Below are positions 1 through 50,597 of a stretch of DNA of 50,597 bases, one piece after another (the first letter of the stretch is position 1; every line of letters begins with the position of its first letter). A program made the position numbers and the translations under genes. The stretch lies in the sequence record OQ223306. One strand, given 5' to 3'. The notes under the pieces are model-generated. The model searched no databases and was not told where the DNA came from. It saw only the letters and a program-made list of their open reading frames with translations. Origin of the DNA: Shigella phage S2_02.

Positions 1-127
1 GGGGGGGGAATTGGTGTTACCCAGTTCACCTGGTAGTCATCTCCATTTTTAGCAAAAAGTGCTATCCATTACGATTACGCTTGATTGTGTGTTAATCCAT
101 GTATATGATTTGCCTAAATCGCAATCG
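1..127. repeat. Terminal direct repeat copy 1 (identical to 50471-50597); probable circular-assembly overlap
   Basis: Bases 1-127 (starting with a G8 run) are repeated exactly at the window end; 127 bp is a typical assembler k-mer overlap. Confidence 0.9.
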
Positions 128-342
128 TAGACAAAATTACACCAAATTACGACTTATAATATACATATAGATATATGTATATATATAATATATAAGTGTT
201 TTTTTTATTTATATATATAGATACTATTATTTGTAATATGGCTGTATAGCGTGTCTACTATGTTAATCGTTGGATGCTCTGGTTATGATATTCATGTTTA
301 TATATACAGTAGTTTTATCGGCTCATATTTATATGGGAAAAG

Positions 343-369
343 CGATTAACACGATTAACACGATTAACC
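343..369. repeat. 3 x 9-bp tandem repeat CGATTAACA in early control region
   Basis: cgattaaca cgattaaca cgattaacc read directly; upstream of first rightward gene. Confidence 0.8.
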
Positions 370-413
370 ACACTTAAAATAGGCTCGCAAGCCTTGACGC
401 AAGAGGGTCGCCG

Positions 414-445
414 TGTAACACTATGATTAGAGACATAGTGTTACA
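414..445. promoter_or_regulatory. Perfect 12-bp inverted repeat TGTAACACTATG-N8-CATAGTGTTACA abutting first early gene; candidate operator
   Basis: Palindrome read directly; shares GTGTAACA core with motifs in 30596-30950; a TTGACG -35-like hexamer lies at 394-399. Confidence 0.45.
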
Positions 446-483
446 TGTTAATCATGGTGTATATTGAAAATGAGGAGAAAGAT

Positions 484-1059
484 ATGAGTTCTTACCAATC
501 AGACGCAGTACAGGCAGCAATTCAGGCGGCTTACGAGAAATCTGGCGTGACCGTTGAGAAGCGCCAGGAGGCAAAAGTGACCGATGTTATCCGTGCCGCT
601 TGCGATCAGCTTTATGGTGATGGCGAGAGTGTCGAGTTCTCATTCGACGCTACTCAGATGGCTGAGGCAGCAGTGAGAAAGTCAGTCCCTGACGCTGATG
701 ATGATGCTGTTAGCGGATATGCCGAGTCCTGGTTGCTCGGGAAGACGGAAGAGATTAACGAGAAGTTTAAATCATCATTCATCACCCCGATCGTATCGCG
801 ACACTTCTCCAAAATCGGCAAGTCGGTCAAGGTGAGCGTAACCATGAACGATGAGAAGTTGCGAGTCGTTACTATCTCAGTGAGCGACGAAGAAGTTCCA
901 GTGAAGAAGCGCCGCAGTCGGAAAAAAGTTAGCCTGGCTGATTGCCTGGATTCGTTTGTGGTTGATGTGGGTAAACTGGCTGATAGCGAATTGATGACTC
1001 GCGATGTAAATGAGATCGTGCGCCAGATGAAAGCGCATATCGAAAAATGTGGATTATAA
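484..1059 (+). CDS. hypothetical early protein (191 aa)
   Basis: ORF-track frame 445..1059; ATG 484 preceded by GAGGAG SD at 472-477; first gene of rightward early region. Confidence 0.6.
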   Translation: MSSYQSDAVQAAIQAAYEKSGVTVEKRQEAKVTDVIRAACDQLYGDGESVEFSFDATQMAEAAVRKSVPDADDDAVSGYAESWLLGKTEEINEKFKSSFITPIVSRHFSKIGKSVKVSVTMNDEKLRVVTISVSDEEVPVKKRRSRKKVSLADCLDSFVVDVGKLADSELMTRDVNEIVRQMKAHIEKCGL

Positions 1060-1065
1060 GGAGAG

Positions 1066-1401
1066 GTGACTATGTTTACTAATATGTTTGATCCGAAGGT
1101 GATGGAAAGACGAAAACTGGAAAGCGAGAAGCAGGAAGAGAACATCAAGAAGATAGCTGATGCCGTGACTGGTAAAAAATTAATCAAAGTAAACCTTAAT
1201 ACCATTGGCCCAGCTTACGACTTAAGAGGTCTTGGCAAGAAAGAGGCGTCAGTGAAGGTTCTTAGACTTATTCACGAAATCAAGAATCAGTACAAGATAG
1301 CCCTCAAGATGAAGAGCCTTAATGTTCCGCATTGCGAGCTTGAGAACATTACTGAGCCGGACTGGTGGGAAATCACCGACGTCGAGTTTACCGTAGAATA
1401 G
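1066..1401 (+). CDS. hypothetical protein (111 aa)
   Basis: ORF track; SD AAGGAGAGG before ATG; stop TAG lies inside conserved box 1397-1417. Confidence 0.6.
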   Translation: MTMFTNMFDPKVMERRKLESEKQEENIKKIADAVTGKKLIKVNLNTIGPAYDLRGLGKKEASVKVLRLIHEIKNQYKIALKMKSLNVPHCELENITEPDWWEITDVEFTVE

Positions 1402-1441
1402 CACTTTTTGTTAAAACCGGATCGGGATAACGCGGTATAGT
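1397..1441 (+). promoter_or_regulatory. Early promoter module: 21-bp box (AATAGCACTTTTTGTTAAAAC) + 18 bp + TATAGT
   Basis: Box 1397-1417, -10-like TATAGT 1436-1441 embedded in hairpin GGGATAAC/GTTATCCC; CATCGA start-like motif follows; gene ATG at 1473. Confidence 0.5.
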
Positions 1442-1472
1442 TATCCCATCGACAACGAATGAGGAAACGAAG

Positions 1473-1667
1473 ATGGAAACGAAAATTGACGTAGTGGTTG
1501 TTCAGCGCGATTCAACTCACGAGAAGGGTCTGTTCAAGAAAGGAACCGAAATCACGATCGACCTTGAGGATATGGTTTCGTATCACTCTAGCCTTACCTG
1601 GAATGTTGTGCGCGTAGGTAGCGACTACAAACTCAAAGGCTTTAACACTTACTTTGCGGAGGCTTAA
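1473..1667 (+). CDS. hypothetical protein (64 aa)
   Basis: ORF track; SD GAGGAAACG; about 25 nt downstream of predicted start of module 1397-1441. Confidence 0.55.
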   Translation: METKIDVVVVQRDSTHEKGLFKKGTEITIDLEDMVSYHSSLTWNVVRVGSDYKLKGFNTYFAEA

Positions 1668-1669
1668 TC

Positions 1670-2140
1670 ATGGCGACAATTACCGTATTCCTGGCTAAAG
1701 ATGAGATTGATGGCGAAATGTCATTCTTCGCGTTTGAGCACAAAACCGGATCGCACTGGCACACTTACAGCCATTACACGGTTATCTCAATCGAAGCGTA
1801 CGACGGCGAACTGCTCACTGATAAACTGAGTAATTTCATTGAAGCCGTTAAAGCTAGCGGCGGCTGCGAGTGGAAGGAAGATCACGAAGTTATGCGAATG
1901 TTTGAGATGGTCAATCCGGTTCGCCTTGAGTCGTTCGAGCTTGATGCTAATGTGACTATCAAGGTGAGAAAGTCGGGTGAGTTATTGCCAGGGATGCGTG
2001 TGCTGACTGGTTACTCTGGCCGTAAGGTGTGGCGCACTGTATCCAAGATTCGCCAGCGCTCGGCAACATGCTATAGCGTATTCTTTGATGATGGTTGGAA
2101 TATGATGTCCGGTAGTGAGGTAAAGTATCTCACCAAATAG
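1670..2140 (+). CDS. hypothetical protein (156 aa)
   Basis: ORF track; GAGG SD; stop TAG inside box 2136-2156. Confidence 0.6.
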   Translation: MATITVFLAKDEIDGEMSFFAFEHKTGSHWHTYSHYTVISIEAYDGELLTDKLSNFIEAVKASGGCEWKEDHEVMRMFEMVNPVRLESFELDANVTIKVRKSGELLPGMRVLTGYSGRKVWRTVSKIRQRSATCYSVFFDDGWNMMSGSEVKYLTK

Positions 2141-2180
2141 CACGAATTGCTAAAACCGGATCGGGGTATCTTGCTATAGT
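2136..2180 (+). promoter_or_regulatory. Early promoter module: box AATAGCACGAATTGCTAAAAC + 18 bp + TATAGT
   Basis: Box 2136-2156; TATAGT 2175-2180 in hairpin GGGGTA/TACCCC; CATCGA follows; gene at 2219. Confidence 0.5.
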
Positions 2181-2218
2181 TACCCCATCGAGACGAGATA
2201 CCAATCAGAGGATTCACC

Positions 2219-2449
2219 ATGTCAATCGTAAAAAACCAGCAAGCCATCGATTCAACCAATAACAACCGCTTTGCTATTTTCATCACTCGCGACAACAAGC
2301 GTTTTGCGGTCAAGGTAGTACCGGGTGGATACAATACATACATGGAAGATAACGGAAAATGGGTTCGGTGTGACAACCTCTCAAACTTCCTGGTCTGGAA
2401 TGCAGAACTCCAGGGATTTGATGATATCAGCACTTTAATTGAGGAGTAA
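2219..2449 (+). CDS. hypothetical protein (76 aa)
   Basis: ORF track; SD CAGAGGA in conserved CCAATCAGAGGA context. Confidence 0.55.
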   Translation: MSIVKNQQAIDSTNNNRFAIFITRDNKRFAVKVVPGGYNTYMEDNGKWVRCDNLSNFLVWNAELQGFDDISTLIEE

Positions 2450-2454
2450 TAATC

Positions 2455-2682
2455 ATGCCACGTTACAGCAACCTAACTCAACTGACCCGCGTTAACGGGC
2501 ACATGATTCCAGCAAAATCCACTCACTACGCTATTGGCGCAAAACACGGAGTCTATTTCAAGTGGCGCGGTCAATGGAACTTCACGGCGGTGAGTAATTT
2601 CTACATGCGCGTTCCAGGTGACGACCCGCAATCGGTAGTCGAGAACTCAATCGGCGACCACAAGATCGAGGTACTGAAATGA
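2455..2682 (+). CDS. hypothetical protein (75 aa)
   Basis: ORF track; SD GAGGAG. Confidence 0.55.
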   Translation: MPRYSNLTQLTRVNGHMIPAKSTHYAIGAKHGVYFKWRGQWNFTAVSNFYMRVPGDDPQSVVENSIGDHKIEVLK

Positions 2683-2789
2683 ACTTCAACACGATTGCAT
2701 TATGGTCTGCCGTCTGGTTCTTCTGCATGGGTCACGCCATTGTTGGGATCGTAATCATGTTACTACTGTGTGCCGGAGCGTTTGAATGA
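2679..2789 (+). CDS. small hydrophobic peptide (36 aa), putative membrane micro-protein
   Basis: ATGA overlap with upstream stop; hydrophobic translation MNFNTIALWSAVWFFCMGHAIVGIVIMLLLCAGAFE; below ORF-track size cutoff. Confidence 0.3.
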   Translation: MNFNTIALWSAVWFFCMGHAIVGIVIMLLLCAGAFE

Positions 2790-2959
2790 TGCGCATTCTA
2801 ATTTGCATGATGGCGGCAGTCGCCATAACTATCCTGGTAGTGTCCGGCTGCGGAGAGGTCAAAGAGAGATGCCATGAAACCGGAAACCAGGTTACTACTT
2901 TCGTGATGGTTGGAAACGTATTGCTACCAATCACATCAAATGAAATCACTTGCGAATAA
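2786..2959 (+). CDS. putative small lipoprotein (57 aa)
   Basis: ATGA overlap with previous micro-ORF; N-terminal signal-like segment with lipobox-like VVSGC; stop TAA falls inside box variant 2955-2975. Confidence 0.4.
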   Translation: MMRILICMMAAVAITILVVSGCGEVKERCHETGNQVTTFVMVGNVLLPITSNEITCE

Positions 2960-2999
2960 CACTTTTTGTTAAAACTCAATTCCGGGGTTGCGATATAGT
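2955..2999 (+). promoter_or_regulatory. Early promoter module (variant box AATAACACTTTTTGTTAAAAC + 18 bp + TATAGT) with no sizeable ORF downstream
   Basis: Box shows symmetric half-site change TAACA/TGTTA; TATAGT 2994-2999; only a 24-codon ORF (3069-3143) before next module. Confidence 0.45.
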
Positions 3000-3139
3000 T
3001 ACCCCATCGACAACAACCTGGTCTGCGTCAGCAATGAGCATCTCAAGGCTGTAGGATTCACTGGCGGTATGCATAAAGAGGATTTGTGCTTCGTTCTCGA
3101 AGAAATGCACGGTTACTATCCTGAGTGCGAGTTAGTTTA

Positions 3140-3184
3140 CTAAGCACGAATTGTTAAAAGGGGATTTGTCCTGACTGGTATAAT
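3140..3184 (+). promoter_or_regulatory. Early promoter module: box CTAAGCACGAATTGTTAAAAG + 18 bp + TATAAT
   Basis: TATAAT 3179-3184 in hairpin GGGGATT/AATCCCC; box contains stop TAA of 24-codon ORF; gene at 3215. Confidence 0.5.
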
Positions 3185-3214
3185 CCCCACATCAACCACT
3201 AAGAGGAAATCATT

Positions 3215-3700
3215 ATGTTGAAATTAAACGAGATTAAATTCCCTGTAGTTTTTAACACTATTAGCTGCGGAAAAATAACCTGCCATAGCAAAGATCGCGC
3301 AACTGACTCATCACTTAATGAGTGTCACCCGTCTATTATTTGCAACTTGATTGATTTACACAATAAGCATAATCCTGACAATATCTCATCACTCCCTTAT
3401 TACGTTGAGTATTTTGGTTCTGGCTGGAAAACTGGTCGAGCCATCTTTCATAGCGCAAAGCCAGAAATCAAGCCAATGCTACAGTGTACTCAGATCGAGA
3501 ACATGCCATTGAGCGCCACGATAAAAGGCGTTCAGATTAGCGATGAATCATGGATCGAGATTACCGCCACGCCTAAAACTATTGAGGTACATGATGATGT
3601 GGTGATTCTCCTGTTGCATTACGGCAGCTTTAAGCACAAGACTGTATCAGGAGAAATCAGCATTAAGCGCGGAACGCTTGTACGCTACGAGGTGAAATAA
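3215..3700 (+). CDS. hypothetical protein (161 aa)
   Basis: ORF track; SD AAGAGGAAA. Confidence 0.6.
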   Translation: MLKLNEIKFPVVFNTISCGKITCHSKDRATDSSLNECHPSIICNLIDLHNKHNPDNISSLPYYVEYFGSGWKTGRAIFHSAKPEIKPMLQCTQIENMPLSATIKGVQISDESWIEITATPKTIEVHDDVVILLLHYGSFKHKTVSGEISIKRGTLVRYEVK

Positions 3701-3762
3701 TGAGCAACTGGTATAACGAACATGTAATGCAGTTTTACCGCAATCGCATCAAGAAAGTTTTA

Positions 3763-3807
3763 AATAGCACGAATTGCTAAACCTTCCGCAAGGCCATTTG
3801 ATATAGT
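3763..3807 (+). promoter_or_regulatory. Early promoter module: box AATAGCACGAATTGCTAAACC + 18 bp + TATAGT
   Basis: TATAGT 3802-3807 in hairpin AAGGCCA/TGGCCTT; predicted start about 3814 supports ATG 3848 as gene start. Confidence 0.5.
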
Positions 3808-3847
3808 GGCCTTATTGAAGCATGGCAACCAATCAGAGGAATCAGCT

Positions 3848-4147
3848 ATGAAAATCAGATTAACCAGCAACTACTTTAACCGTGAATCTTTCAAACAATA
3901 CATAATCACAGACGGAATGAATCCTGGCATCATCCTTGATGTGTCCTACAACATTGGCGACGTTATGTTTGTATCAGCAACTGAGCTTGCAAAGTACGCA
4001 AAGCCAGAACATTGTCACCTGGCAGAGCCTCACTTGATCGATGGAAAGGTTACAGATTACGCATTCACCAAAGGTGAGTATGAAATCGTGAGATCTGGAC
4101 CTTTCAGCTTCTGGAACAAACTTAAATCAGGGGAGTTATTCAAATGA
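3848..4147 (+). CDS. hypothetical protein (99 aa)
   Basis: ORF-track frame (track start is GTG 3806); ATG 3848 has SD CAGAGGA and lies downstream of predicted start of module 3763-3807. Confidence 0.55.
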   Translation: MKIRLTSNYFNRESFKQYIITDGMNPGIILDVSYNIGDVMFVSATELAKYAKPEHCHLAEPHLIDGKVTDYAFTKGEYEIVRSGPFSFWNKLKSGELFK

Positions 4148-4431
4148 GCAAAACTCATAAGTTAAAAATTGCCCCGATACATTTCATTGGTGTAATGAAC
4201 GGAGCCAAAACGGCAGAGTTCCGCATCAATGACCGCAACTTCCAGGTTGGTGATATCCTTGAGCTACGCGAGTTCGATCGTGACGAGTTTACCGGGTGGG
4301 AAGTTCACGCCAGGGTGTCCGATGTTACAGACGTGACGCCATACATCAATCGCGGTTATGACGAGCAAGAATGCGACTTCACGCAATACGTGATGTTATC
4401 AATCAAGCCTTACAGGAAGGTTAGACCATGA
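4144..4431 (+). CDS. putative ASCH/PUA-like (DUF3850-like) domain protein (95 aa)
   Basis: ORF track; N-terminal pattern KLKIAPIHF...GAKTAEFRINDRNFQVGDILELRE recalls ASCH-type small phage proteins (from memory, unverified). Confidence 0.4.
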   Translation: MSKTHKLKIAPIHFIGVMNGAKTAEFRINDRNFQVGDILELREFDRDEFTGWEVHARVSDVTDVTPYINRGYDEQECDFTQYVMLSIKPYRKVRP

Positions 4432-5066
4432 AATTTGAGTGCGTATCAAGTAGCGGATCTGGTTTTAAGTGGGGAAAAACTTACAAAGGTGTTCGCGTAA
4501 ATGATGACAGCTTCATCATTACTGATGAGAACGATTGCAACGTGAACGTTGTACGGCGTCACGAATATCAGGAAATTTTCCTGCCTTATGGCGGTAGCTC
4601 AAAATATATCTTCCATCGAATCGTGGATGGTGTTAAATTTAAAGACGTAATCGAAGCAATCAACCAACTGCATAATAAAGAGGTCAAATTTATGAAATTC
4701 GAATGTATCAGTGATAACACCAAAAAATTTACCGTTGGCAAAATCTACGACGTGCCTACTGAGCACGCAAAGCACACTGTAGCACTGACCGACGACACGG
4801 GTCGCCACCGCATTGCAACCGTAACGCACAACTGTGAAGGTCTTCGCTGGAATAGCGGCGGAACTAAGTTCGCAACGTTCGGCAAGAAGCGCAAGCGTAC
4901 TTTCTGCGTTAATGGAAAGGTTACAGCGAACAAGATCCACAACGTCAAGCCGTCAGAAGTTGACCGTAAGCCAGCGACGAAGTTTGAAGAAAAGGCAGAT
5001 TTGTCTGGTCTGGCTATCGCTCTTGTTCTCCTGGTTGCTTCGATTTCGCTGCTATTCATCATGTAA
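4428..5066 (+). CDS. membrane-anchored protein with internally duplicated N-terminal domain (212 aa)
   Basis: ORF track; two segments each starting MKFEC(V/I)S; C-terminal hydrophobic helix LSGLAIALVLLVASISLLFIM. Confidence 0.6.
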   Translation: MKFECVSSSGSGFKWGKTYKGVRVNDDSFIITDENDCNVNVVRRHEYQEIFLPYGGSSKYIFHRIVDGVKFKDVIEAINQLHNKEVKFMKFECISDNTKKFTVGKIYDVPTEHAKHTVALTDDTGRHRIATVTHNCEGLRWNSGGTKFATFGKKRKRTFCVNGKVTANKIHNVKPSEVDRKPATKFEEKADLSGLAIALVLLVASISLLFIM

Positions 5067-5073
5067 TGCTAAT

Positions 5074-5107
5074 GGGGAATCGGCTCTGAACGGTTCCCCT
5101 TTCTTTT
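5074..5107 (+). terminator. Rho-independent terminator
   Basis: GGGGAA...TTCCCC hairpin followed by TTTCTTTT directly after stop of 4428..5066. Confidence 0.6.
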
Positions 5108-5214
5108 GGAGAAAACACTATGCCAGACTTTTCTAATTGGAATAACGAGCCGCCATCATTTCAGGAGTTGCTATTTTGCCTCCTGATCCTGACACTATCT
5201 CTTAAGGGTGTTTT

Positions 5215-5433
5215 ATGGCTACTATCATGACAGCAGAAGATGCAGCACGCGAAGCAGTGGAAGGAATGCGCCCAAATAGCTCCAGAATCGCCCACTACTA
5301 CAAATTTGAGGTGTCGGCAGTGCAATTGGTCCATGAAATTTTAAGGCTCCCACAAGTCGATTCAGCGCGCGTGGTGACGTGCTTAAAAAATTATTTTTGC
5401 ATCACTATTAAAACGAATAGCACGAATTGCTAA
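5215..5433 (+). CDS. hypothetical protein (72 aa)
   Basis: ORF track; weak SD; C-terminus NSTNC and stop are encoded by box 5416-5436; an alternative 36-codon hydrophobic ORF 5120-5230 has a better SD. Confidence 0.4.
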   Translation: MATIMTAEDAAREAVEGMRPNSSRIAHYYKFEVSAVQLVHEILRLPQVDSARVVTCLKNYFCITIKTNSTNC

Positions 5434-5460
5434 AACTTGCTCAAGGGCATTTGTTAGAAT
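5416..5460 (+). promoter_or_regulatory. Early promoter module: box AATAGCACGAATTGCTAAAAC + 18 bp + TGtTAGAAT
   Basis: -10-like TAGAAT 5455-5460 in hairpin AAGGGCAT/ATGCCCTT; gene at 5501. Confidence 0.5.
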
Positions 5461-5500
5461 GCCCTTCGTTGAGTTAAGCAACTAATCAGAGGAATAAATC

Positions 5501-6034
5501 ATGGATAAAATCACAATTTGGGGCCAGACAATCAACCTGTTTCTCGGCACTCGCCGCGTGGCAATCTTTGACTTCGACGGAACACTGAGTGACGGCTCAA
5601 AACGTCTTCACCTGCTACCGACGAAAGATTTGCACTTAACGGAAAGCTGGTCTGAGTTCAACCGCGCGGCAATATTTGACAATCCTATACGTAGTACGAT
5701 TGATGTGATGAACTCCATGTTTGCAGCTGGGTATCATGTGATCATTTTAACCGGGCGAAGCGATGAGGTGCGTTACGCATCTGAGTTATGGCTTAAGCAT
5801 CACGGCGCGCGATATGATTACTTAATCATGAGGCCGCATACCGACAACCGCAAAGACACGGTAATGAAAGAAGAGGCAGTGCGCGCTATCGGCATTGAGA
5901 ACATCCTGGCGGCTTGGGAAGACTCACCGCAAATTATTCCATTATTCCGGTCGCTTGGGATAACCACTTACGCTGTAGTTGACTATGGCGATAAAGTCCA
6001 CGATCATTTAAAATCTCACGGGGTAGAGAAATGA
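5501..6034 (+). CDS. HAD-superfamily phosphatase-like protein (177 aa)
   Basis: ORF track; N-terminal IFDFDGTLSD (DxDGT) motif and downstream ILTGR motif typical of HAD phosphatases. Confidence 0.65.
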   Translation: MDKITIWGQTINLFLGTRRVAIFDFDGTLSDGSKRLHLLPTKDLHLTESWSEFNRAAIFDNPIRSTIDVMNSMFAAGYHVIILTGRSDEVRYASELWLKHHGARYDYLIMRPHTDNRKDTVMKEEAVRAIGIENILAAWEDSPQIIPLFRSLGITTYAVVDYGDKVHDHLKSHGVEK

Positions 6035-6141
6035 ACCTATACGAATTTATTGCAGAACATCCGGTATTGACGGTTATCATCCTGCTAATCATCAATCACA
6101 CTATCATCAATGTAGCAAAATTATTTTTAGGGAGATACTGA
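6031..6141 (+). CDS. small hydrophobic peptide (36 aa)
   Basis: ATGA overlap with phosphatase stop; translation MNLYEFIAEHPVLTVIILLIINHTIINVAKLFLGRY; ends 1 nt before kinase ATG. Confidence 0.3.
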   Translation: MNLYEFIAEHPVLTVIILLIINHTIINVAKLFLGRY

Positions 6142-6142
6142 C

Positions 6143-6715
6143 ATGAAAACAGCTATCGTTTTAAACGGCGCGCCTGGAGCGGGAAAAGACACTATCGGAT
6201 GCATCCTGGCTGACACTTACGATCACGTAGCCTTGCGCAGCTTCAAAGCGCCAATGTTTGAGATTGCCCGGGCAATCCTGGGTGAAGCTAACTACGAGTA
6301 TTTCATGTTCTTGTATGAGGACCGTCGATATAAAGAAGAGCCAGCATCCATCCTGAACGGTAAAAGCCCACGCCAGTTTATGATCTGGATTAGCGAAGAA
6401 GTCATCAAGCCGCAGTTCGGAAATCGCTTCTTCGGTATGCGAGCGGAAAGCAAGGTGAAAGAGTCGCACTCCCTTTCGGTATTTACTGACGGTGGATTCA
6501 AAGATGAGATCTTGCAAATGATTGAAGGCGATATCCAAGTCAAGCTATGCCGCATACATCGCAACGGCTGCAACTTCGATAACGACAGTCGAGATTATAT
6601 CTACCTGGATAATATGATCGGTGTCAACGGTTATCAGGAATGTGACTTCTTCTCTGTCGAAGGTCATCCAGAAATTACCGCTCAGCACATAGCCGCCACG
6701 TTCATCAATAAATAG
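6143..6715 (+). CDS. P-loop nucleotide/nucleoside kinase-like protein (190 aa)
   Basis: ORF track; Walker A GAPGAGKDT at N-terminus; stop TAG inside box 6711-6731. Confidence 0.65.
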   Translation: MKTAIVLNGAPGAGKDTIGCILADTYDHVALRSFKAPMFEIARAILGEANYEYFMFLYEDRRYKEEPASILNGKSPRQFMIWISEEVIKPQFGNRFFGMRAESKVKESHSLSVFTDGGFKDEILQMIEGDIQVKLCRIHRNGCNFDNDSRDYIYLDNMIGVNGYQECDFFSVEGHPEITAQHIAATFINK

Positions 6716-6755
6716 CACGAATTGCTAAAACGTCGATGGGGTGATTTGATATAGT
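6711..6755 (+). promoter_or_regulatory. Early promoter module: box AATAGCACGAATTGCTAAAAC + 18 bp + TATAGT
   Basis: TATAGT 6750-6755; flanking 9-bp stem CGATGGGGT/ACCTCATCG has one G-T (G.U) pair; gene at 6788. Confidence 0.5.
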
Positions 6756-6787
6756 TACCTCATCGACAACGAAGAGAGAAAATCGAA

Positions 6788-6997
6788 ATGATGGTATCAA
6801 CTGATAAGTTTTTCACTTGCACTAAAACCTCTGAAGTATTCGAACTCGTTCATACTGATAACGGTGATTTCATGCATGACGGTTGCGACGTTTTTATCGA
6901 AGTGAAAGAAAGCGACTATGATGACGGAGTTTATTATAACCCGGCAGTGAACACTCAGTTCTTTACACCGATCGAAGAAGAAGGAGAAGAGGCATGA
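6788..6997 (+). CDS. small acidic protein (69 aa)
   Basis: ORF track; strongly acidic C-terminus (ESDYDDGVYY...EEEGEEA). Confidence 0.5.
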   Translation: MMVSTDKFFTCTKTSEVFELVHTDNGDFMHDGCDVFIEVKESDYDDGVYYNPAVNTQFFTPIEEEGEEA

Positions 6998-7338
6998 TTA
7001 CGATTAACTTGTCAGATAAACAAGCGCGCGAACTCCTGGGCACGATTGGTGAACAGCTTCACGTAAAAGGTGCTACGGCTGAATTGCTTAACCAGATCGA
7101 CAGGAAGCTTACACCAGTGTCGACGAATCAAGCTGAGTTTGCAGCATGGAAAAGCGAACGCATTACGCCAAACATTATCAGGGCGTGGAAGAGTAAGCAC
7201 AAAAAAGAAATCAATGTTGAGGATTTATTTACCGATGAATTAAGCCCTTCAAAGGTTGCTCAATATCAGTTGCGATACATGGAGTCGGTTTGCAATCAGG
7301 TTTTAGATGTTAACTTCTCATTTGGTGGAGGTAAATAA
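6994..7338 (+). CDS. hypothetical protein (114 aa)
   Basis: ORF track; ATGA overlap with upstream gene. Confidence 0.55.
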   Translation: MITINLSDKQARELLGTIGEQLHVKGATAELLNQIDRKLTPVSTNQAEFAAWKSERITPNIIRAWKSKHKKEINVEDLFTDELSPSKVAQYQLRYMESVCNQVLDVNFSFGGGK

Positions 7339-7568
7339 TGTTCGGTTTAAGTGAAGTGGAATGGAACGTAGTAAAGCGCGCGGCGAAGGAATTAAATAAA
7401 TTCGTTAGCGGCATGAAGAAGGAAGATCGTAAAAACGACAAGATTATGATTGACGTAATCTCAACTCACCACAAAAAGGTCGAGCCACTCATCGACCGCT
7501 ACAAATTTGTCTGGACTGCCGGGTATATTGCCGGTCGCGTAGGTAACAAAGAATGGGATTACGAATAA
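7338..7568 (+). CDS. hypothetical protein (76 aa)
   Basis: ORF track; TAATG overlap with upstream stop. Confidence 0.5.
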   Translation: MFGLSEVEWNVVKRAAKELNKFVSGMKKEDRKNDKIMIDVISTHHKKVEPLIDRYKFVWTAGYIAGRVGNKEWDYE

Positions 7569-7771
7569 TGGCTAATTTACCGAAGAAAGGCGATCAGGTT
7601 CGATGCATCACGTCACGCAATAGCGATGCTTTCTCGGCGGGATGCGCGTACGACGTTGAAAAAGTCAGTAAATCAAAGAAAATTGTATTCGTGTACGGGG
7701 ATGATGGAAATCTGCATGAGATTGACTACCCGCAGGATGTGACTAATGGTCAATTCGAAATTAATGATTGA
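7568..7771 (+). CDS. hypothetical protein (67 aa)
   Basis: ORF-track frame 7553..7771; ATG 7568 overlaps upstream TAA (TAATG) so preferred over 7553. Confidence 0.45.
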   Translation: MANLPKKGDQVRCITSRNSDAFSAGCAYDVEKVSKSKKIVFVYGDDGNLHEIDYPQDVTNGQFEIND

Positions 7772-7935
7772 CCTACGCCACTGAGCGGTGATAGCATTAA
7801 TCCCGTAGACAGACTAGGCGCAATTAAGCGCAACGCGTGAGACGACTCTCACACTCCCAGCTAACAAGCTCGGTTGCATAGTGGTTAAGCAACGCCGCAG
7901 ACCCGTAAGCGGCAATAATTCAAGAGGATTGCATA

Positions 7936-8097
7936 ATGCAAAACACTAAAGATGAATCAGTCAAAATTGAAATTAAAGTAACTCGCAACGGTGAAACCAC
8001 TAGTTATAAAAAACGATTAAATCCTGGCGAGGCTGTTATTGGTCGAATTGCTGGCGTTATGATTAAGGCGCAGGAAGATGAAGCGATTCAAAGTTAA
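7936..8097 (+). CDS. hypothetical small protein (53 aa)
   Basis: ATG with SD AAGAGGA; below ORF-track cutoff; follows a 164-bp non-coding gap. Confidence 0.35.
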   Translation: MQNTKDESVKIEIKVTRNGETTSYKKRLNPGEAVIGRIAGVMIKAQEDEAIQS

Positions 8098-8264
8098 ATT
8101 AATCATTCGAAAGATGGGAATGTTTTGCCAGTCGTGCAAGCAATCTTTCGAAACTGAATTATCAGCAACCAGTCAGGCAGAAGCCATCACGAAAGCAAAA
8201 AAACTTTCCGGCGCTAATCTTGACACTCACAAAATAAACATTGAATTAATCAAGGAGATTTAAC

Positions 8265-8492
8265 ATGACCATTTTTTTATTGATTCTTGCTGGTATCGTT
8301 ATTTTTGGTGCTGGTTTGTTTGCTGGATTCGCACTTGTGGCGGCAGCAATTGCGATGGACGCGAAGAATAAAACTGGTGTATGGCTGACCTACTCGCCTA
8401 AGAAGGACCAATGGGAAATGACTGGCGACCTTGCTCACTGCTACTCTAAAGCACAGACCCACCCAAAAGGCATTAAACGACGATTATCGTGA
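8265..8492 (+). CDS. small membrane protein (75 aa)
   Basis: ORF track; SD AAGGAG; N-terminal hydrophobic segment IFLLILAGIVIFGAGLFAGFALVAAAIA. Confidence 0.55.
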   Translation: MTIFLLILAGIVIFGAGLFAGFALVAAAIAMDAKNKTGVWLTYSPKKDQWEMTGDLAHCYSKAQTHPKGIKRRLS

Positions 8493-8501
8493 TAAATACT
8501 A

Positions 8502-8524
8502 ACCCGCTTCGGCGGGTTTTTTTA
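8502..8524 (+). terminator. Rho-independent terminator closing the rightward early region
   Basis: CCCGC-TTCG-GCGGG hairpin followed by T7. Confidence 0.7.
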
Positions 8525-8535
8525 TGCCTGCAATA

Positions 8536-8561
8536 TGGTAAAATAACACTAAATGTTAAAC
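8536..8561 (+). promoter_or_regulatory. Putative late promoter (extended -10 TGgTAAAAT) overlapped by box copy AATAACACTAAATGTTAAAC
   Basis: TGGTAAAAT 8536-8544; box 8542-8561 spans predicted start and abuts TerS SD. Confidence 0.4.
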
Positions 8562-8576
8562 AAAGAGGATGGATTT

Positions 8577-9101
8577 ATGAGTGAACCTAAGAACGTTCCC
8601 GTTGTTCAGGGGGGTAATTTCAAAGAGCTATACAAGAAAAAGTTCGGCACTGTTCTTGCGAAGAACCGGGCAATGACACCAGAGCAACTATTCGATCTGT
8701 CAGTGAAGTATTTCGAATGGGCCGAGGACAACGCAATCAAGGCGTCAGAATCAGCCAGCTTTCAGGGTGGCGTTTATGAATCGCTTGTCCATAAGCCGCG
8801 CGTCTTCACCTGGACCGGATACCGACTATTTATCGGTGCAAGCGAGGCTGCAATCATTAAGTGGAAGCGAGAGGAAGAGTACAGTGAGGTTATGGAGTTT
8901 GTGGAATCGGTAATCAACGAGCAAAAATTCCAGCTTGCCGCCAACGGTGTTATTAATGCCTCCTTTATCGGTAAGGATCTCGGAATCGATAAGCCAACCT
9001 CAATAAATATCGAAAACTCGTCAGCCTCCGCATCGACAGTAGTCGCCACTACTGAGGATGCAATGAAGGACGCGGTAGACAAGGTTATTGGATTGCTGTA
9101 G
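8577..9101 (+). CDS. terS: terminase small subunit (174 aa)
   Basis: ORF-track frame 8553..9101; ATG 8577 has SD AGAGGA; position immediately upstream of TerL in packaging module. Confidence 0.55.
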   Translation: MSEPKNVPVVQGGNFKELYKKKFGTVLAKNRAMTPEQLFDLSVKYFEWAEDNAIKASESASFQGGVYESLVHKPRVFTWTGYRLFIGASEAAIIKWKREEEYSEVMEFVESVINEQKFQLAANGVINASFIGKDLGIDKPTSINIENSSASASTVVATTEDAMKDAVDKVIGLL

Positions 9102-32115: not shown

Positions 32116-32150
32116 AATAGCTAAACAAATAATTAATGAGGTGTTATAAT
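32116..32150 (+). promoter_or_regulatory. Degenerate box + hairpin carrying TATAAT upstream of erf
   Basis: AATAGCTAAAC at 32116-32126; hairpin ATGAGGTG-ttataatg-CACCTCAT with TATAAT 32145-32150. Confidence 0.4.
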
Positions 32151-32181
32151 GCACCTCATACACCAATCAGGAGAAGTTAAG

Positions 32182-35121: not shown

Positions 35122-35174
35122 AATAGCACGAATTGCTAAGCACAGATTTTATCATTGTGCCACCTGCCTTGCAA
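35122..35174 (-). promoter_or_regulatory. Putative sigma70 promoter for tail-fibre gene (TTGCAA-17-TAAAAT, minus strand) with box copy at the start site
   Basis: Minus-strand -35 at 35169-35174, -10 at 35146-35151; box AATAGCACGAATTGCTAAG 35122-35140 between start site and SD AAGGAG. Confidence 0.45.
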
Positions 35175-36150: not shown

Positions 36151-36217
36151 AAAATAAAAAACGCGTAGAAGGATGTTAACCCGCTACGCGTCGTTTGTTT
36201 TAACTAAAAATGCTATT
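36151..36217 (-). promoter_or_regulatory. Minus-strand module: box + 18 bp + TAACAT overlapping hairpin/T-run terminator, upstream of primase
   Basis: Box (revcomp AATAGCATTTTTAGTTAAAAC) 36197-36217 contains stop of upstream gene; -10-like at 36173-36178; hairpin ACGCGTAG/CTACGCGT 36161-36191 then U-run. Confidence 0.45.
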
Positions 36218-42679: not shown

Positions 42680-42713
42680 TTACTAAAAATACCCGAAGGG
42701 ATTCGGGTATAGT
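42669..42713 (+). promoter_or_regulatory. Early-type promoter module: degenerate box + 18 bp + TATAGT
   Basis: Box GATCGCACTAATTACTAAAAA contains upstream stop; TATAGT 42708-42713 after hairpin ACCCGAA/TTCGGGT. Confidence 0.45.
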
Positions 42714-46244: not shown

Positions 46245-46273
46245 CACAATAAACTCCTTAGTTGACGGTGTGA

Positions 46274-46318
46274 ATGATACACCGCCAATGGTACACGCGT
46301 TTTGCAAAAAGTGCTATT
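46274..46318 (-). promoter_or_regulatory. Leftward early promoter module (box + 18 bp + TATCAT on minus strand)
   Basis: Box (revcomp AATAGCACTTTTTGCAAAACG) 46298-46318; minus-strand -10 at 46274-46279. Confidence 0.45.
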
Positions 46319-46737: not shown

Positions 46738-46773
46738 TTCGTTAACTCCTGATTGGTTATCTTGAATAAGGTC

Positions 46774-46818
46774 ACTTTATCAAATGACCTTACGGCAACA
46801 TTAACAAATCGTGCTATT
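46774..46818 (-). promoter_or_regulatory. Leftward early promoter module (box + 18 bp + TAAAGT)
   Basis: Box 46798-46818; -10 inside hairpin AAGGTCA/TGACCTT (46768-46792), which differs from the 3791-3817 hairpin by compensatory changes. Confidence 0.5.
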
Positions 46819-47255: not shown

Positions 47256-47287
47256 TTTTAATTCCTTTGTTTGTTTGGTGTGGGAGT

Positions 47288-47333
47288 AATATACCTTACT
47301 CCCTGCTGATTGTCTTTAGCTATTCGTGCTATC
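47288..47333 (-). promoter_or_regulatory. Leftward early promoter module (box + 19 bp + TATATT)
   Basis: Box 47313-47333; -10 within hairpin GGGAGTAA/TTACTCCC (47282-47303). Confidence 0.45.
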
Positions 47334-48373: not shown

Positions 48374-48404
48374 GATTCTTTCCTCGTTCTCTGTTGGTGG
48401 GATG

Positions 48405-48449
48405 ACTATACCAGCCATCCCGGATGCGCGTTTAGCAAAAAGTGCTATT
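48405..48449 (-). promoter_or_regulatory. Leftward early promoter module (box + 18 bp + TATAGT)
   Basis: Box 48429-48449; minus-strand TATAGT at 48405-48410; CATCC start-like motif. Confidence 0.5.
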
Positions 48450-49016: not shown

Positions 49017-49062
49017 CAATATACCCCGATTACCTTCGGGGCGTTTAGCAATTCGTGCTGTT
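49017..49062 (-). promoter_or_regulatory. Leftward box copy with hairpin; -10 weak
   Basis: Box (revcomp AACAGCACGAATTGCTAAACG) 49042-49062 with hairpin CCCCGA/TCGGGG; no good -10 at the expected spacing. Confidence 0.35.
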
Positions 49063-49396: not shown

Positions 49397-49434
49397 TTTC
49401 CTGCCCCTGATGTGTATCTCGTTTCGATGAAGTA

Positions 49435-49479
49435 ATTATGCCAAATCACACCGATCGAGTTTTAACAAAAAGTGCTATT
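49435..49479 (-). promoter_or_regulatory. Leftward early promoter module (box + 18 bp + CATAAT)
   Basis: Box 49459-49479 contains stop of HNH gene; minus-strand -10 at 49435-49440. Confidence 0.45.
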
Positions 49480-50329: not shown

Positions 50330-50470
50330 CCAATAATTGCTCATTATTCCATCAATAGTGGAATATGTGGAATAATTTTGATTGTGATTGATTGCGAATG
50401 ATGAAACGTGATTATTGCATGGTGCGCAACAGTTGGTTGATTTGTTGCTGAGAATGCAATGATTGTGAGA
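50330..50470. repeat. Repeat-rich non-coding control region (TGGAAT/ATTCCA and GATTG repeats) ending in G8
   Basis: Short direct and inverted repeats read directly; continues across the assembly junction into 1-445. Confidence 0.5.
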
Positions 50471-50597
50471 GGGGGGGGAATTGGTGTTACCCAGTTCACC
50501 TGGTAGTCATCTCCATTTTTAGCAAAAAGTGCTATCCATTACGATTACGCTTGATTGTGTGTTAATCCATGTATATGATTTGCCTAAATCGCAATCG
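50471..50597. repeat. Terminal direct repeat copy 2 (identical to 1-127)
   Basis: Exact match to window start; repeat may continue beyond window end. Confidence 0.9.

Follow-up and report, generated by a model that had tools for sequence, protein, structure and literature searches.

Layout of the cassette at position 3763

The present analysis concerns a hairpin that fills the space between a small open reading frame (ORF) and a second ORF of 99 aa in the genome of Shigella phage S2_02 (sequence record OQ223306); the whole stretch of 50,597 nucleotides is referred to below as the window, with (+) and (−) indicating the strand. The cassette to which the hairpin belongs lies on the plus strand and opens with a box, AATAGCACGAATTGCTAAA (3763–3781), which holds the TAA stop codon (3778–3780) of the small upstream ORF. 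A two-tier hairpin follows (3783–3820; −16.0 kcal/mol, z −2.5), composed, in the RNA fold, of an inner helix AAGGCCAUU/AGUGGCCUU (3790–3798/3805–3813) and of an outer helix CUUC/GAAG (3783–3786/3817–3820); its loop, UGAUAU, consists of the TG and the beginning of an extended −10 element, TGaTATAGT (3799–3807), of which the hexamer TATAGT occupies 3802–3807. The putative transcription start, A3814, is found 7 nt after the −10, and a leader with the ribosome-binding site (RBS) CCAATCAGAGGA (3826–3850) brings the cassette to the ATG (3848) of the 99-aa ORF. In the initial annotation the hairpin AAGGCCA/TGGCCTT had been placed at 3791–3817; the pairing is indeed there, with coordinates 1–4 nt off, since the stretch AAGGCCA-tttgatatag-TGGCCTT reads from 3790 to 3813 with its arms at 3790–3796 and 3807–3813.

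About 13 cassettes of the window share one and the same layout, namely box, 20 nt, extended −10, start and leader, with a hairpin between the box and the start. All of the 13 that were folded as RNA give one dominant stem-loop (−11 to −23 kcal/mol, z −1.8 to −6.5 against dinucleotide shuffles); the stems are GC-rich and 7–15 bp long and the loops measure 3–8 nt, dimensions that fall within those of intrinsic terminators (at least 5 bp, loop of 3–8 nt). The loop had been described as keeping a hexamer similar to TATAGT; more exactly, the last 1–3 nt of the hexamer are usually paired and the real loop is the TGnTA part.

The window represents a whole T1-like genome (Drexlerviridae, Tunavirinae, Tunavirus), whose best matches are the Escherichia/Shigella phages SA32RD, SH2 and Shfl1, at 92–95% identity; the 4-kb stretch around the 3791 hairpin is matched by 262 phage records. 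Relatives were taken from IMG/VR as 45 T1-like loci, anchored on a 543-aa replication-region protein and on the large terminase (37–99% identity), to which two GenBank genomes of other Drexlerviridae genera and one close relative were added. Cassettes with a strict box in this set, counted over 47 related sequences, number 296 unique sequences in 90 sequence families, related to one another and non-independent; 203 unique cassettes with the −10 at its fixed place were taken without selection for pairing, and 55 promoter-cassette families, with one representative each, served for the family-level tests. The same architecture is encountered in genomes of Braunvirinae and Hicfunavirus, as well as in loci with a terminase identity of just 64%. 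A search of the whole window against Rfam at the gathering score returned no matches, and a literature search on T1-like transcript maps, on the box sequence and on T1 RNA-seq found nothing relevant.

The repeated box

About 20 boxes of the pattern AATAGCAC(GAATT/TTTTT)TG(C/T)TAAA are present in the window, against a chance expectation of 0.02–2, and all of them are co-oriented with the neighbouring genes; across the family, the shared core is ATAGCAC-N5-TGyTAAA, in a repeat of 19–21 nt (AATAGCACnnnnnTGyTAAA). A degenerate 14-base pattern of the box, compared with IMG/VR, gave only single chance matches in unrelated contigs. Read in the direction of transcription, the box corresponds to aaATAGCACnnnTTGnTAAAA, the 21-nt direct repeat described in phage TLS and noted too for T1, Rtp and Rogue1 (PMC11447400); its function is regarded in that paper as open, a stoperator, an enhancer site or an UP element having been proposed. 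The correspondence is close: the same box, co-oriented with the genes, with GAA/TTT/AAA subtypes, and found in TLS ~76 nt ahead of the start codons, the distance from the box start (3763) to the ATG (3848) being 85 nt in the cassette considered here. The paper covers the repeat alone, however, and contains neither the fixed 20-nt distance to an extended −10, nor the hairpin, nor the covariation (PMC11447400).

The box doubles as the end of the preceding gene, because upstream stop codons fall inside it in two of the three frames, either as TAG at box positions 3–5 (1399–1401, 2138–2140 and 6713–6715) or as TAA at positions 16–18 (3778–3780, mentioned above, and 5431–5433). The box is also partly palindromic (TAGCA-N7-TGCTA), with its centre near −43 from the putative start, as at 3763–3781; this is a position typical of a class II activator site, at which a hypothetical factor might bind. 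A different arrangement is seen at 35122–35160 (+) and in its relatives, where the box is directly followed by a short hairpin (CAATGATtttATCATTG in T1), no −10 is found at the usual place and a canonical terminator lies ~50 nt further on.

The promoter, the start and the leader

In the window as in the relatives, a −10-like hexamer begins exactly 20 nt past the box. The element is of the extended type, (T/G)GnTATAGT: G occupies −14 in 47 of the 55 families, −15 is T or G and the hexamer conforms to TAnnnT. A −35 element was sought at 16–18 nt in the cassettes and not found; the TTGCTA of the box lies 22 nt from the −10, and this candidate was rejected as a −35 on account of the 22-nt spacer, which is the same in every cassette. 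Position 32 after the box (−1) is a pyrimidine in 53 of the 55 families and position 33 (+1) is A in 49, so that a C-A start is predicted 7 nt downstream of the −10. Next comes a leader rich in A, with a Shine-Dalgarno sequence, the RBS often being CCAATCAGAGGA, and the intergenic space of ~75 nt is thus wholly occupied by elements of the cassette.

It is proposed that the extended −10 would be read by the host sigma-70 RNA polymerase; no phage RNA polymerase or sigma gene has been reported for T1-like phages, although not all proteins of the window were screened for one. The cassettes were not called by standard promoter and terminator consensus scans of the window.

Conservation of pairing across relatives

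That the hairpins keep structure rather than sequence, through compensatory changes and G.U pairs, had been claimed in the initial annotation from the window, and the covariation check across relatives bears it out. The family of the 3791 hairpin comprises 25 distinct sequences, which align without gaps; the inner helix is paired in 99.1% of the cells and four of its nine pairs are changed on both sides, the pair equivalent to C3794-G3809 occurring as CG (9 sequences), GC (8), UA (3), UG (3) and GU (2). None of 500 shuffles attained the observed pairing, the covariation score or the number of double changes, while sliding the partner by 1–3 columns leaves a pairing of only 34–52%.

The minus-strand hairpin AAGGTCA/TGACCTT (46791–46768) differs from the 3790 stem, exactly as had been stated, by a paired C>T and G>A change. 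The route between the two is documented at the orthologous site before the MKSIKLKCT gene, where relatives have either AAGGTCA/TGGCCTT (U.G) or AAGGTCA/TGACCTT (U-A); the CG>UG>UA path from the AAGGCCA to the AAGGTCA hairpin is therefore observed with its wobble intermediate included.

Beyond this family, at least seven consecutive pairs spanning the −10 are found in 17 of the 55 family representatives, where 4.8 are expected with shuffled partners and 11 is the maximum in 500 shuffles. The folding z of the slot averages −2.47 over the 55 families, being below −2 in 60% of them, and within close families the stems carry fewer variant letters per column than the unpaired positions (0.18 vs 0.26). 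Comparison of the sequences thus indicates that pairing is under selection, yet the hairpin is not universal.

Strand bias of the structure

Transitions in a Watson-Crick pair give G.U or A.C equally, and G.U is tolerated only if the strand that carries it folds; for this reason an excess of G.U is informative on the level at which the structure acts. In stems anchored on Watson-Crick pairs, G.U and A.C number 54 and 31 (p=0.017, from non-independent sequences); in family-consensus stems from which G.U was disallowed, the figures are 20 and 9 (p=0.06). A third count, 30 vs 2 in RNAalifold structures, was discounted as inflated, since RNAalifold lets G.U count as pairing. Of the two strands, the sense one gives the more stable fold in 35 families and the antisense one in 19 (Wilcoxon p=0.003); among 12 window cassettes, 10 show this preference for the sense strand, for instance those at 6711 (−23.0 vs −12.7 kcal/mol) and at 46818 (−15.3 vs −8.0 kcal/mol). 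Moreover, whichever arm of the genome a cassette lies in, the 5' side of the stem in the transcribed strand is always the G-rich one. Although the effect is moderate, and suggestive rather than decisive, a single-stranded structure of the sense strand, most simply RNA, appears to be favoured over a cruciform or a protein-bound palindrome.

The last of these would be an operator: the inverted repeat flanking the −10 could be the site of a dimeric repressor, of phage or host origin, shutting off early transcription. The dyad symmetry does overlap the −10 and early genes need to be shut off, but the stem sequences are wholly different from one cassette to another while their pairing is kept, and a single protein could not read all of them; G.U pairs and an asymmetry between sense and antisense would, in addition, be meaningless for the recognition of a duplex, and the partly palindromic box is a better candidate for a protein site. 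On the diversity of the stems and on the strand asymmetry this explanation was rejected as highly improbable.

The same asymmetry bears on the possibility that the cassette is a terminator of antisense transcription, in which the opposite-strand hairpin followed by the complement of the box (UUUUAGCAAUU) would amount to a hairpin with a U-rich tail. The conserved end of the box, TAAAA, does lie 1–8 nt from the base of the extended stem; against this, the antisense hairpins are systematically less stable, as in the two examples just given, a gap of 8 nt separates the U run from the inner stem in most cassettes, and no antisense promoters are evident. This reading, too, was rejected, the asymmetry making it very hard to credit.

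Two further devices built on hairpins were considered and ruled out from the dimensions and the loops of the stems. Sites for RNase III of the T7 R-site type require ~20 bp of double-stranded RNA or more, mostly interrupted by an internal loop, as compared to inner stems of 7–10 bp and a longest stem of 15 bp; hairpin promoters of the N4-type virion RNA polymerase depend on an RNA polymerase encoded by the phage and have a 5–7 bp stem and a conserved 3-nt loop, as compared to loops carrying a sigma-70 −10. A protein able to read the hairpins was also sought, and only one RNA-binding candidate emerged, with no link to the hairpins: an early protein of 95 aa (4144–4431 (+)) with a DUF3850/ASCH (PUA-like) domain (E 3e-16), whose homologue in Shfl1 is named "RNA-binding protein" in RefSeq; NCBIfam gave nothing for the other early ORFs.

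Two architectures and the upstream gene

The cassettes fall into two architectures. In type A, the common one (115 unique cassettes, mostly with TATAGT), the 5' arm spans about −24 to −16, the loop is made of the TG and of the first bases of the −10, and the 3' arm coincides with the discriminator from −9 to −1; the hairpin at 3790–3813 is of this kind. The sequences following the type A stem are A/C-rich (ATTGAAGCA, ATCGACAAC, ACACCAAAC), averaging 1.1 T in 9 nt, with no case of 5 or more. In type B (44 cassettes, 17 families), a GC stem, often with a short loop, stands just before the −10, and at least 5 T in 9 nt follow it in 52% of cases; the −10 itself is T-rich (TATTAT, CATTAT, CATAAT) and precedes a T-rich discriminator, as in CCCGGTCgagcgGATCGGG-TATTATCTTTTC and ACCCGCgaaaGCGGG-TATTATTGTTTT. 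Type B is shaped like a canonical intrinsic terminator in which the −10 serves as the U tract; the transcript would come off immediately ahead of the next start. The cassette at 36217(−) combines a −10 in the loop with a T run after the stem. The absence of U tracts, reported initially for all of these hairpins, is consequently a property of the type with the −10 in the loop and extends neither to 36217(−) nor to the second architecture. Among the 90 families, ~21 are of type A, 17 of type B and 12 of other kinds, the rest being without a clear hairpin.

The inner stem ends at −1, upstream of the putative +1, and therefore only RNA reading through from the upstream gene would contain it, the mRNA made from the cassette's own promoter being expected to lack it. 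In agreement with a connection to the preceding gene, a hairpin (minimum free energy of −9 or lower) is found in 176 of the 217 cassettes (81%) that follow 40 or more codons without a stop, the frame closing in the box, and in 20 of the other 79 (25%). Two cassettes, 19565(−) and 15801(−), face a divergent gene or a bidirectional terminator and have no co-oriented upstream gene; in both, the box and, at the usual distance, a −10-like hexamer (TAGGAT and TATGCA, respectively) are retained, while the slot between them has no hairpin, and the promoter therefore seems not to need one.

The former of these two (19565–19480, minus strand), with an extended −10 TTGATAGGAT, points antisense into the plus-strand late region and is kept in relatives; it meets a hairpin, GGGGGCgcaaGCCCCC, ~20 nt past the putative start. 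The site could give rise to a short antisense RNA or could simply be the bidirectional terminator of a plus-strand gene.

Cassettes at mosaic junctions

Within positions 1–9000 of the window, the 3762–3836 cassette is the only part that matches distant genera, at 89–98% identity (Klebsiella Webervirus, TLS, Salmonella and Citrobacter phages), and different genes follow it there, such as dmk in TLS; the identical AAGGCCA/TGGCCTT cassette stands ahead of at least eight unrelated downstream ORFs in different phages. When the window is compared with its relatives, 19 of 56 homology breakpoints fall in cassettes, where 10% would be expected (p about 1e-6), a pattern that fits cassette-mediated shuffling, although surviving breakpoints are expected in intergenic DNA anyway.

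These observations are among those that would suit an action at the level of DNA, in which a cruciform or single-strand hairpin around the −10 would tune melting or the response to supercoiling, or would act as a recombination hot spot, as in the mini-circles formed by the PeSL cassettes discussed below; the position of the hairpin, locked to the promoter with the 3' arm as the discriminator from −9 to −1, would suit it as well. On the other hand, hairpinless cassettes retain the box and the −10-like hexamer at the fixed spacing; a G.U pair becomes an A.C mismatch on the other strand, whose folding is weaker, contrary to what a symmetric cruciform would imply; breakpoints survive in intergenic DNA whatever the mechanism, and for recombination the conserved box, −10 and RBS suffice. 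We consider a role of this sort unlikely.

Proposed function

Taken together, an excess of G.U over A.C, a sense strand more stable than the antisense strand, an inner stem placed before +1, stop codons inside the box and terminators in the same slot of sister cassettes fit a role in RNA tied to the upstream gene. Each small early gene would be preceded by a box containing the upstream stop, by 20 nt, an extended −10, a C-A start and an A-rich leader with its Shine-Dalgarno sequence; the hairpin would be made only when the polymerase reads through from the upstream gene, and in the read-through RNA it would form immediately past the upstream stop codon. There it may act on the 3' end of the upstream message, as an attenuator, as a barrier to 3' exonucleases or as an insulator between neighbouring cassettes. 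The −10 would come to lie in the loop because the intergenic space of ~75 nt is used twice; in the sister cassettes, a GC hairpin before a T-rich −10 (TATTAT/CATAAT) and a T-rich discriminator would supply the U tract of an intrinsic terminator. Indeed, the main reason for placing type A with 3'-end or insulator elements is that a terminator-shaped element fills the same slot in sister cassettes. By analogy with the PeSL cassettes, we put the chances that these are 3'-end or insulator hairpins for upstream transcripts at about even. The proposal of the initial annotation, a 3'-end stabiliser or processing signal of the upstream gene, agrees with this as far as the tie to the upstream gene at the RNA level is concerned, while the choice between stabilising, attenuating and processing is beyond what sequence can decide.

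Several observations weigh against this interpretation. With no U tract, efficient intrinsic termination by the E. coli polymerase is not to be expected of type A, and the terminator consensus scan did not call the type A hairpins. The excess of G.U over A.C is no more than ~2:1, and the count with the least bias gives p=0.06. Among cassettes that have a −10, the contrast between those with and without an upstream frame becomes weak (155 of 184 vs 12 of 19, p=0.05, in related sequences). About 40 of the 90 families show no clear hairpin, many of these being boxes without a −10. Finally, the register i+j=41 shows 64% paired cells over the 203 unique cassettes (31–50% in other registers, 55 ± 0.9% with permuted partners), but this enrichment vanishes with one representative per family, the signal coming from the two largest families; conclusions on pairing are accordingly based on the best-register and per-family tests and not on the fixed register.

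A bias towards the sense strand fits any role in RNA, and the hairpin might equally serve the downstream gene: the box, A/U-rich, single-stranded and directly 5' of the hairpin, could be cut in the read-through RNA (AAUAGCACUUUUUGUUAAAA, RNase E-like), leaving near the new 5' end a hairpin that protects the downstream message, or that shields the RBS, conserved 15–35 nt further downstream, from pairing with upstream coding sequence. The U-tract, terminator-shaped hairpins in the same slot of sister cassettes are left unexplained by such a 5' stabiliser or processing insulator, and every gene has its own promoter, whose mRNA is without the hairpin; we retain it as a minor possibility. It is also conceivable, if rather improbable, that the hairpins with the −10 in the loop and no U tract constitute a distinct device coupling read-through to the downstream promoter, either because a nascent hairpin closing at −1 would displace or stall the incoming polymerase and relieve occlusion, or because a hairpin of the sense-strand DNA would expose the −10 as a single strand; such a structure could also be a crossover point for the shuffling of cassettes across Drexlerviridae genera.

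Other cassettes and features of the window

On the plus strand, the stems GGGATAAC, GGGGTA and AAGGGCAT noted in the initial annotation are all present. The first belongs to the cassette 1397–1447, with the box at 1397–1415, the hairpin GGGATAAC/GTTATCCC at 1424–1447 and TATAGT at 1436–1441; the second to the cassette 2136–2186 (box 2136–2154, hairpin GGGGTA/TACCCC 2163–2186, −10 2175–2180); the third to the cassette 5416–5466 (box 5416–5434, hairpin AAGGGCAT/ATGCCCTT 5443–5466 with an outer helix, −10 TAGAAT 5455–5460, z −4.5). The cassette 6711–6767 has its box at 6711–6729, its −10 at 6750–6755 and the most stable hairpin (−23 kcal/mol, z −6.5); the stem, previously described as 6734–6765 with a G-T pair, does contain G.T but extends over 6732–6767, with 15 pairs of which two are G.T (G.U in RNA). 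A hairpin ATGAGGTGT/GCACCTCAT at 32136–32159 (z −5.1) has TATAAT as its loop, a partial box ahead and CCAATCAGGAG after it. The type B hairpin TACCCGAA/TTCGGGTA (42690–42713), preceded by a degenerate box, overlaps TATAGT (42708–42713); this is the ACCCGAA stem of the initial annotation, which exists at 42690–42709 and closely precedes the −10 instead of enclosing it.

The remaining cassettes are on the minus strand. That of the AAGGTCA/TGACCTT hairpin (46768–46818; hairpin 46791–46768, z −5.6) has its box at 46818–46800 and TAAAGT at 46779–46774. At 47282–47333, the box (47333–47315) is followed by the hairpin GGGAGTAA/TTACTCCC (47303–47282), TATATT falling across its loop and 3' arm, and at 48399–48449 the box (48449–48431) by the hairpin GGGATGGCUG/UAGUCAUCCC (48421–48399). 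The cassette 49024–49062 is of type B (box 49062–49044, hairpin CCCCGA/TCGGGG 49041–49024, −10 TATATT directly after), and the one at 49424–49479 (box 49479–49461) has a degenerate hairpin, with G.U pairs and mismatches, in a stem at ~49458–49424. A 10-bp hairpin (46288–46262) with TATCAT in loop and stem characterises the cassette 46262–46318 (box 46318–46300), while in the cassette 36160–36217 (box 36217–36199) the hairpin (36192–36160) carries TAACAT in the loop and is followed by TTTTTTATTTT, in the shape of a canonical intrinsic terminator.

Features of another kind are found towards the ends of the window. An exact direct repeat of 127 bp (1–127 = 50471–50597) reflects either terminally redundant ends or, for a circularly permuted genome, an overlap left by the assembly; it doubles one box (66/50536, minus strand), downstream of which, reading the minus strand, a run of eight C (ccaattcccccccctctcac) lies at 50450–50470 and 80–100, with length and flanks that differ among relatives. 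A (TA)n-rich, boxless stretch at ~130–230, upstream of the first plus-strand gene, contains canonical sigma-70-like hexamers (TATACA-18-TATAAT at 160–189) and may be a first early promoter of another type.

Relationship to known systems and significance

The closest parallel is offered by the PeSL cassettes of the T4-like phages RB49/phi1, PST and nt-1 (Arbiol et al. 2010, PMC2839356; Comeau et al. 2014, PMC4122927), which combine an A/T-rich upstream region with a sigma-70 early promoter and flank ORFans in hyperplastic regions; their terminator activity, their promoter activity and recombination between copies have been established experimentally, and in RB49/phi1 the stem-loop cut reporter expression like a strong terminator (PMC2839356). 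The T1-like elements have in common with them a repeated intergenic cassette of ~100 bp, placed before early genes that are small and for the most part unknown, and co-oriented with them (~20 boxes in the window, 296 unique cassettes in the set); an A/T-rich upstream element at one end and a Shine-Dalgarno sequence with a start codon at the other; a stem-loop whose sequence varies, set in PeSL between −35 and −10 or over the −10, and here between the box and the −10 or over it; and a coincidence with mosaic junctions between related phages, to which a bias towards intergenic DNA may contribute here. The sigma-70-type promoter of PeSL may have its counterpart in the extended −10 and the C-A start predicted for the T1-like cassettes. 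The differences lie in the motifs, which the descriptions themselves set apart: an AT-rich region and a −35 in PeSL, as opposed to a specific, partly palindromic ATAGCAC box 22 nt from an extended −10, with no recognisable −35, in the T1-like cassettes. Many T1-like stems are, moreover, without poly-G/poly-C and without any U tract, and whereas activities and mini-circles are experimental for PeSL, the T1-like cassettes are known from their sequence.

With intrinsic terminators the hairpins share a GC-rich stem and a short loop directly after a stop codon, to which type B and 36217(−) add a U-rich tail; type A, with ~1 T in the 9 nt after the stem, falls outside the strict class. Stem-loops without a U tract bring to mind the 3' stabiliser hairpins of the REP/BIME type, which in E. 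coli operons are stable, stand between co-transcribed genes and are thought to block 3' exonucleases; REP elements, however, form a sequence family, whereas the T1-like hairpins have only the pairing in common and are fused to a promoter.

The elements are thus best read as composite promoter/stem-loop cassettes of a T1-like phage, similar to PeSL and probably not new in kind. Part of this is already known: the box has been published, and in some T1-like GenBank records the hairpins are labelled as terminators, as in SA32RD (OL960578), where the homologous hairpins were called by WebGeSTer and TransTermHP. What goes beyond prior description is the fixed distance to an extended −10, the predicted C-A start, the stop codons in the box and the apparently selected hairpin that fills the gap. 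In terms of annotation, type A hairpins labelled "rho-independent terminator" in GenBank have no U tract and may not terminate; compact cassettes of this kind could also serve as parts for phage engineering. The ~20 repeats of each genome thereby turn into well-delimited promoter/hairpin cassettes open to direct testing. If they act as PeSL cassettes do, siphoviruses and T4-like myoviruses would have independently evolved the same solution, that is, self-contained and transcriptionally insulated gene cassettes recombining at conserved linkers, and this would help to explain the mosaic early regions of the Drexlerviridae.

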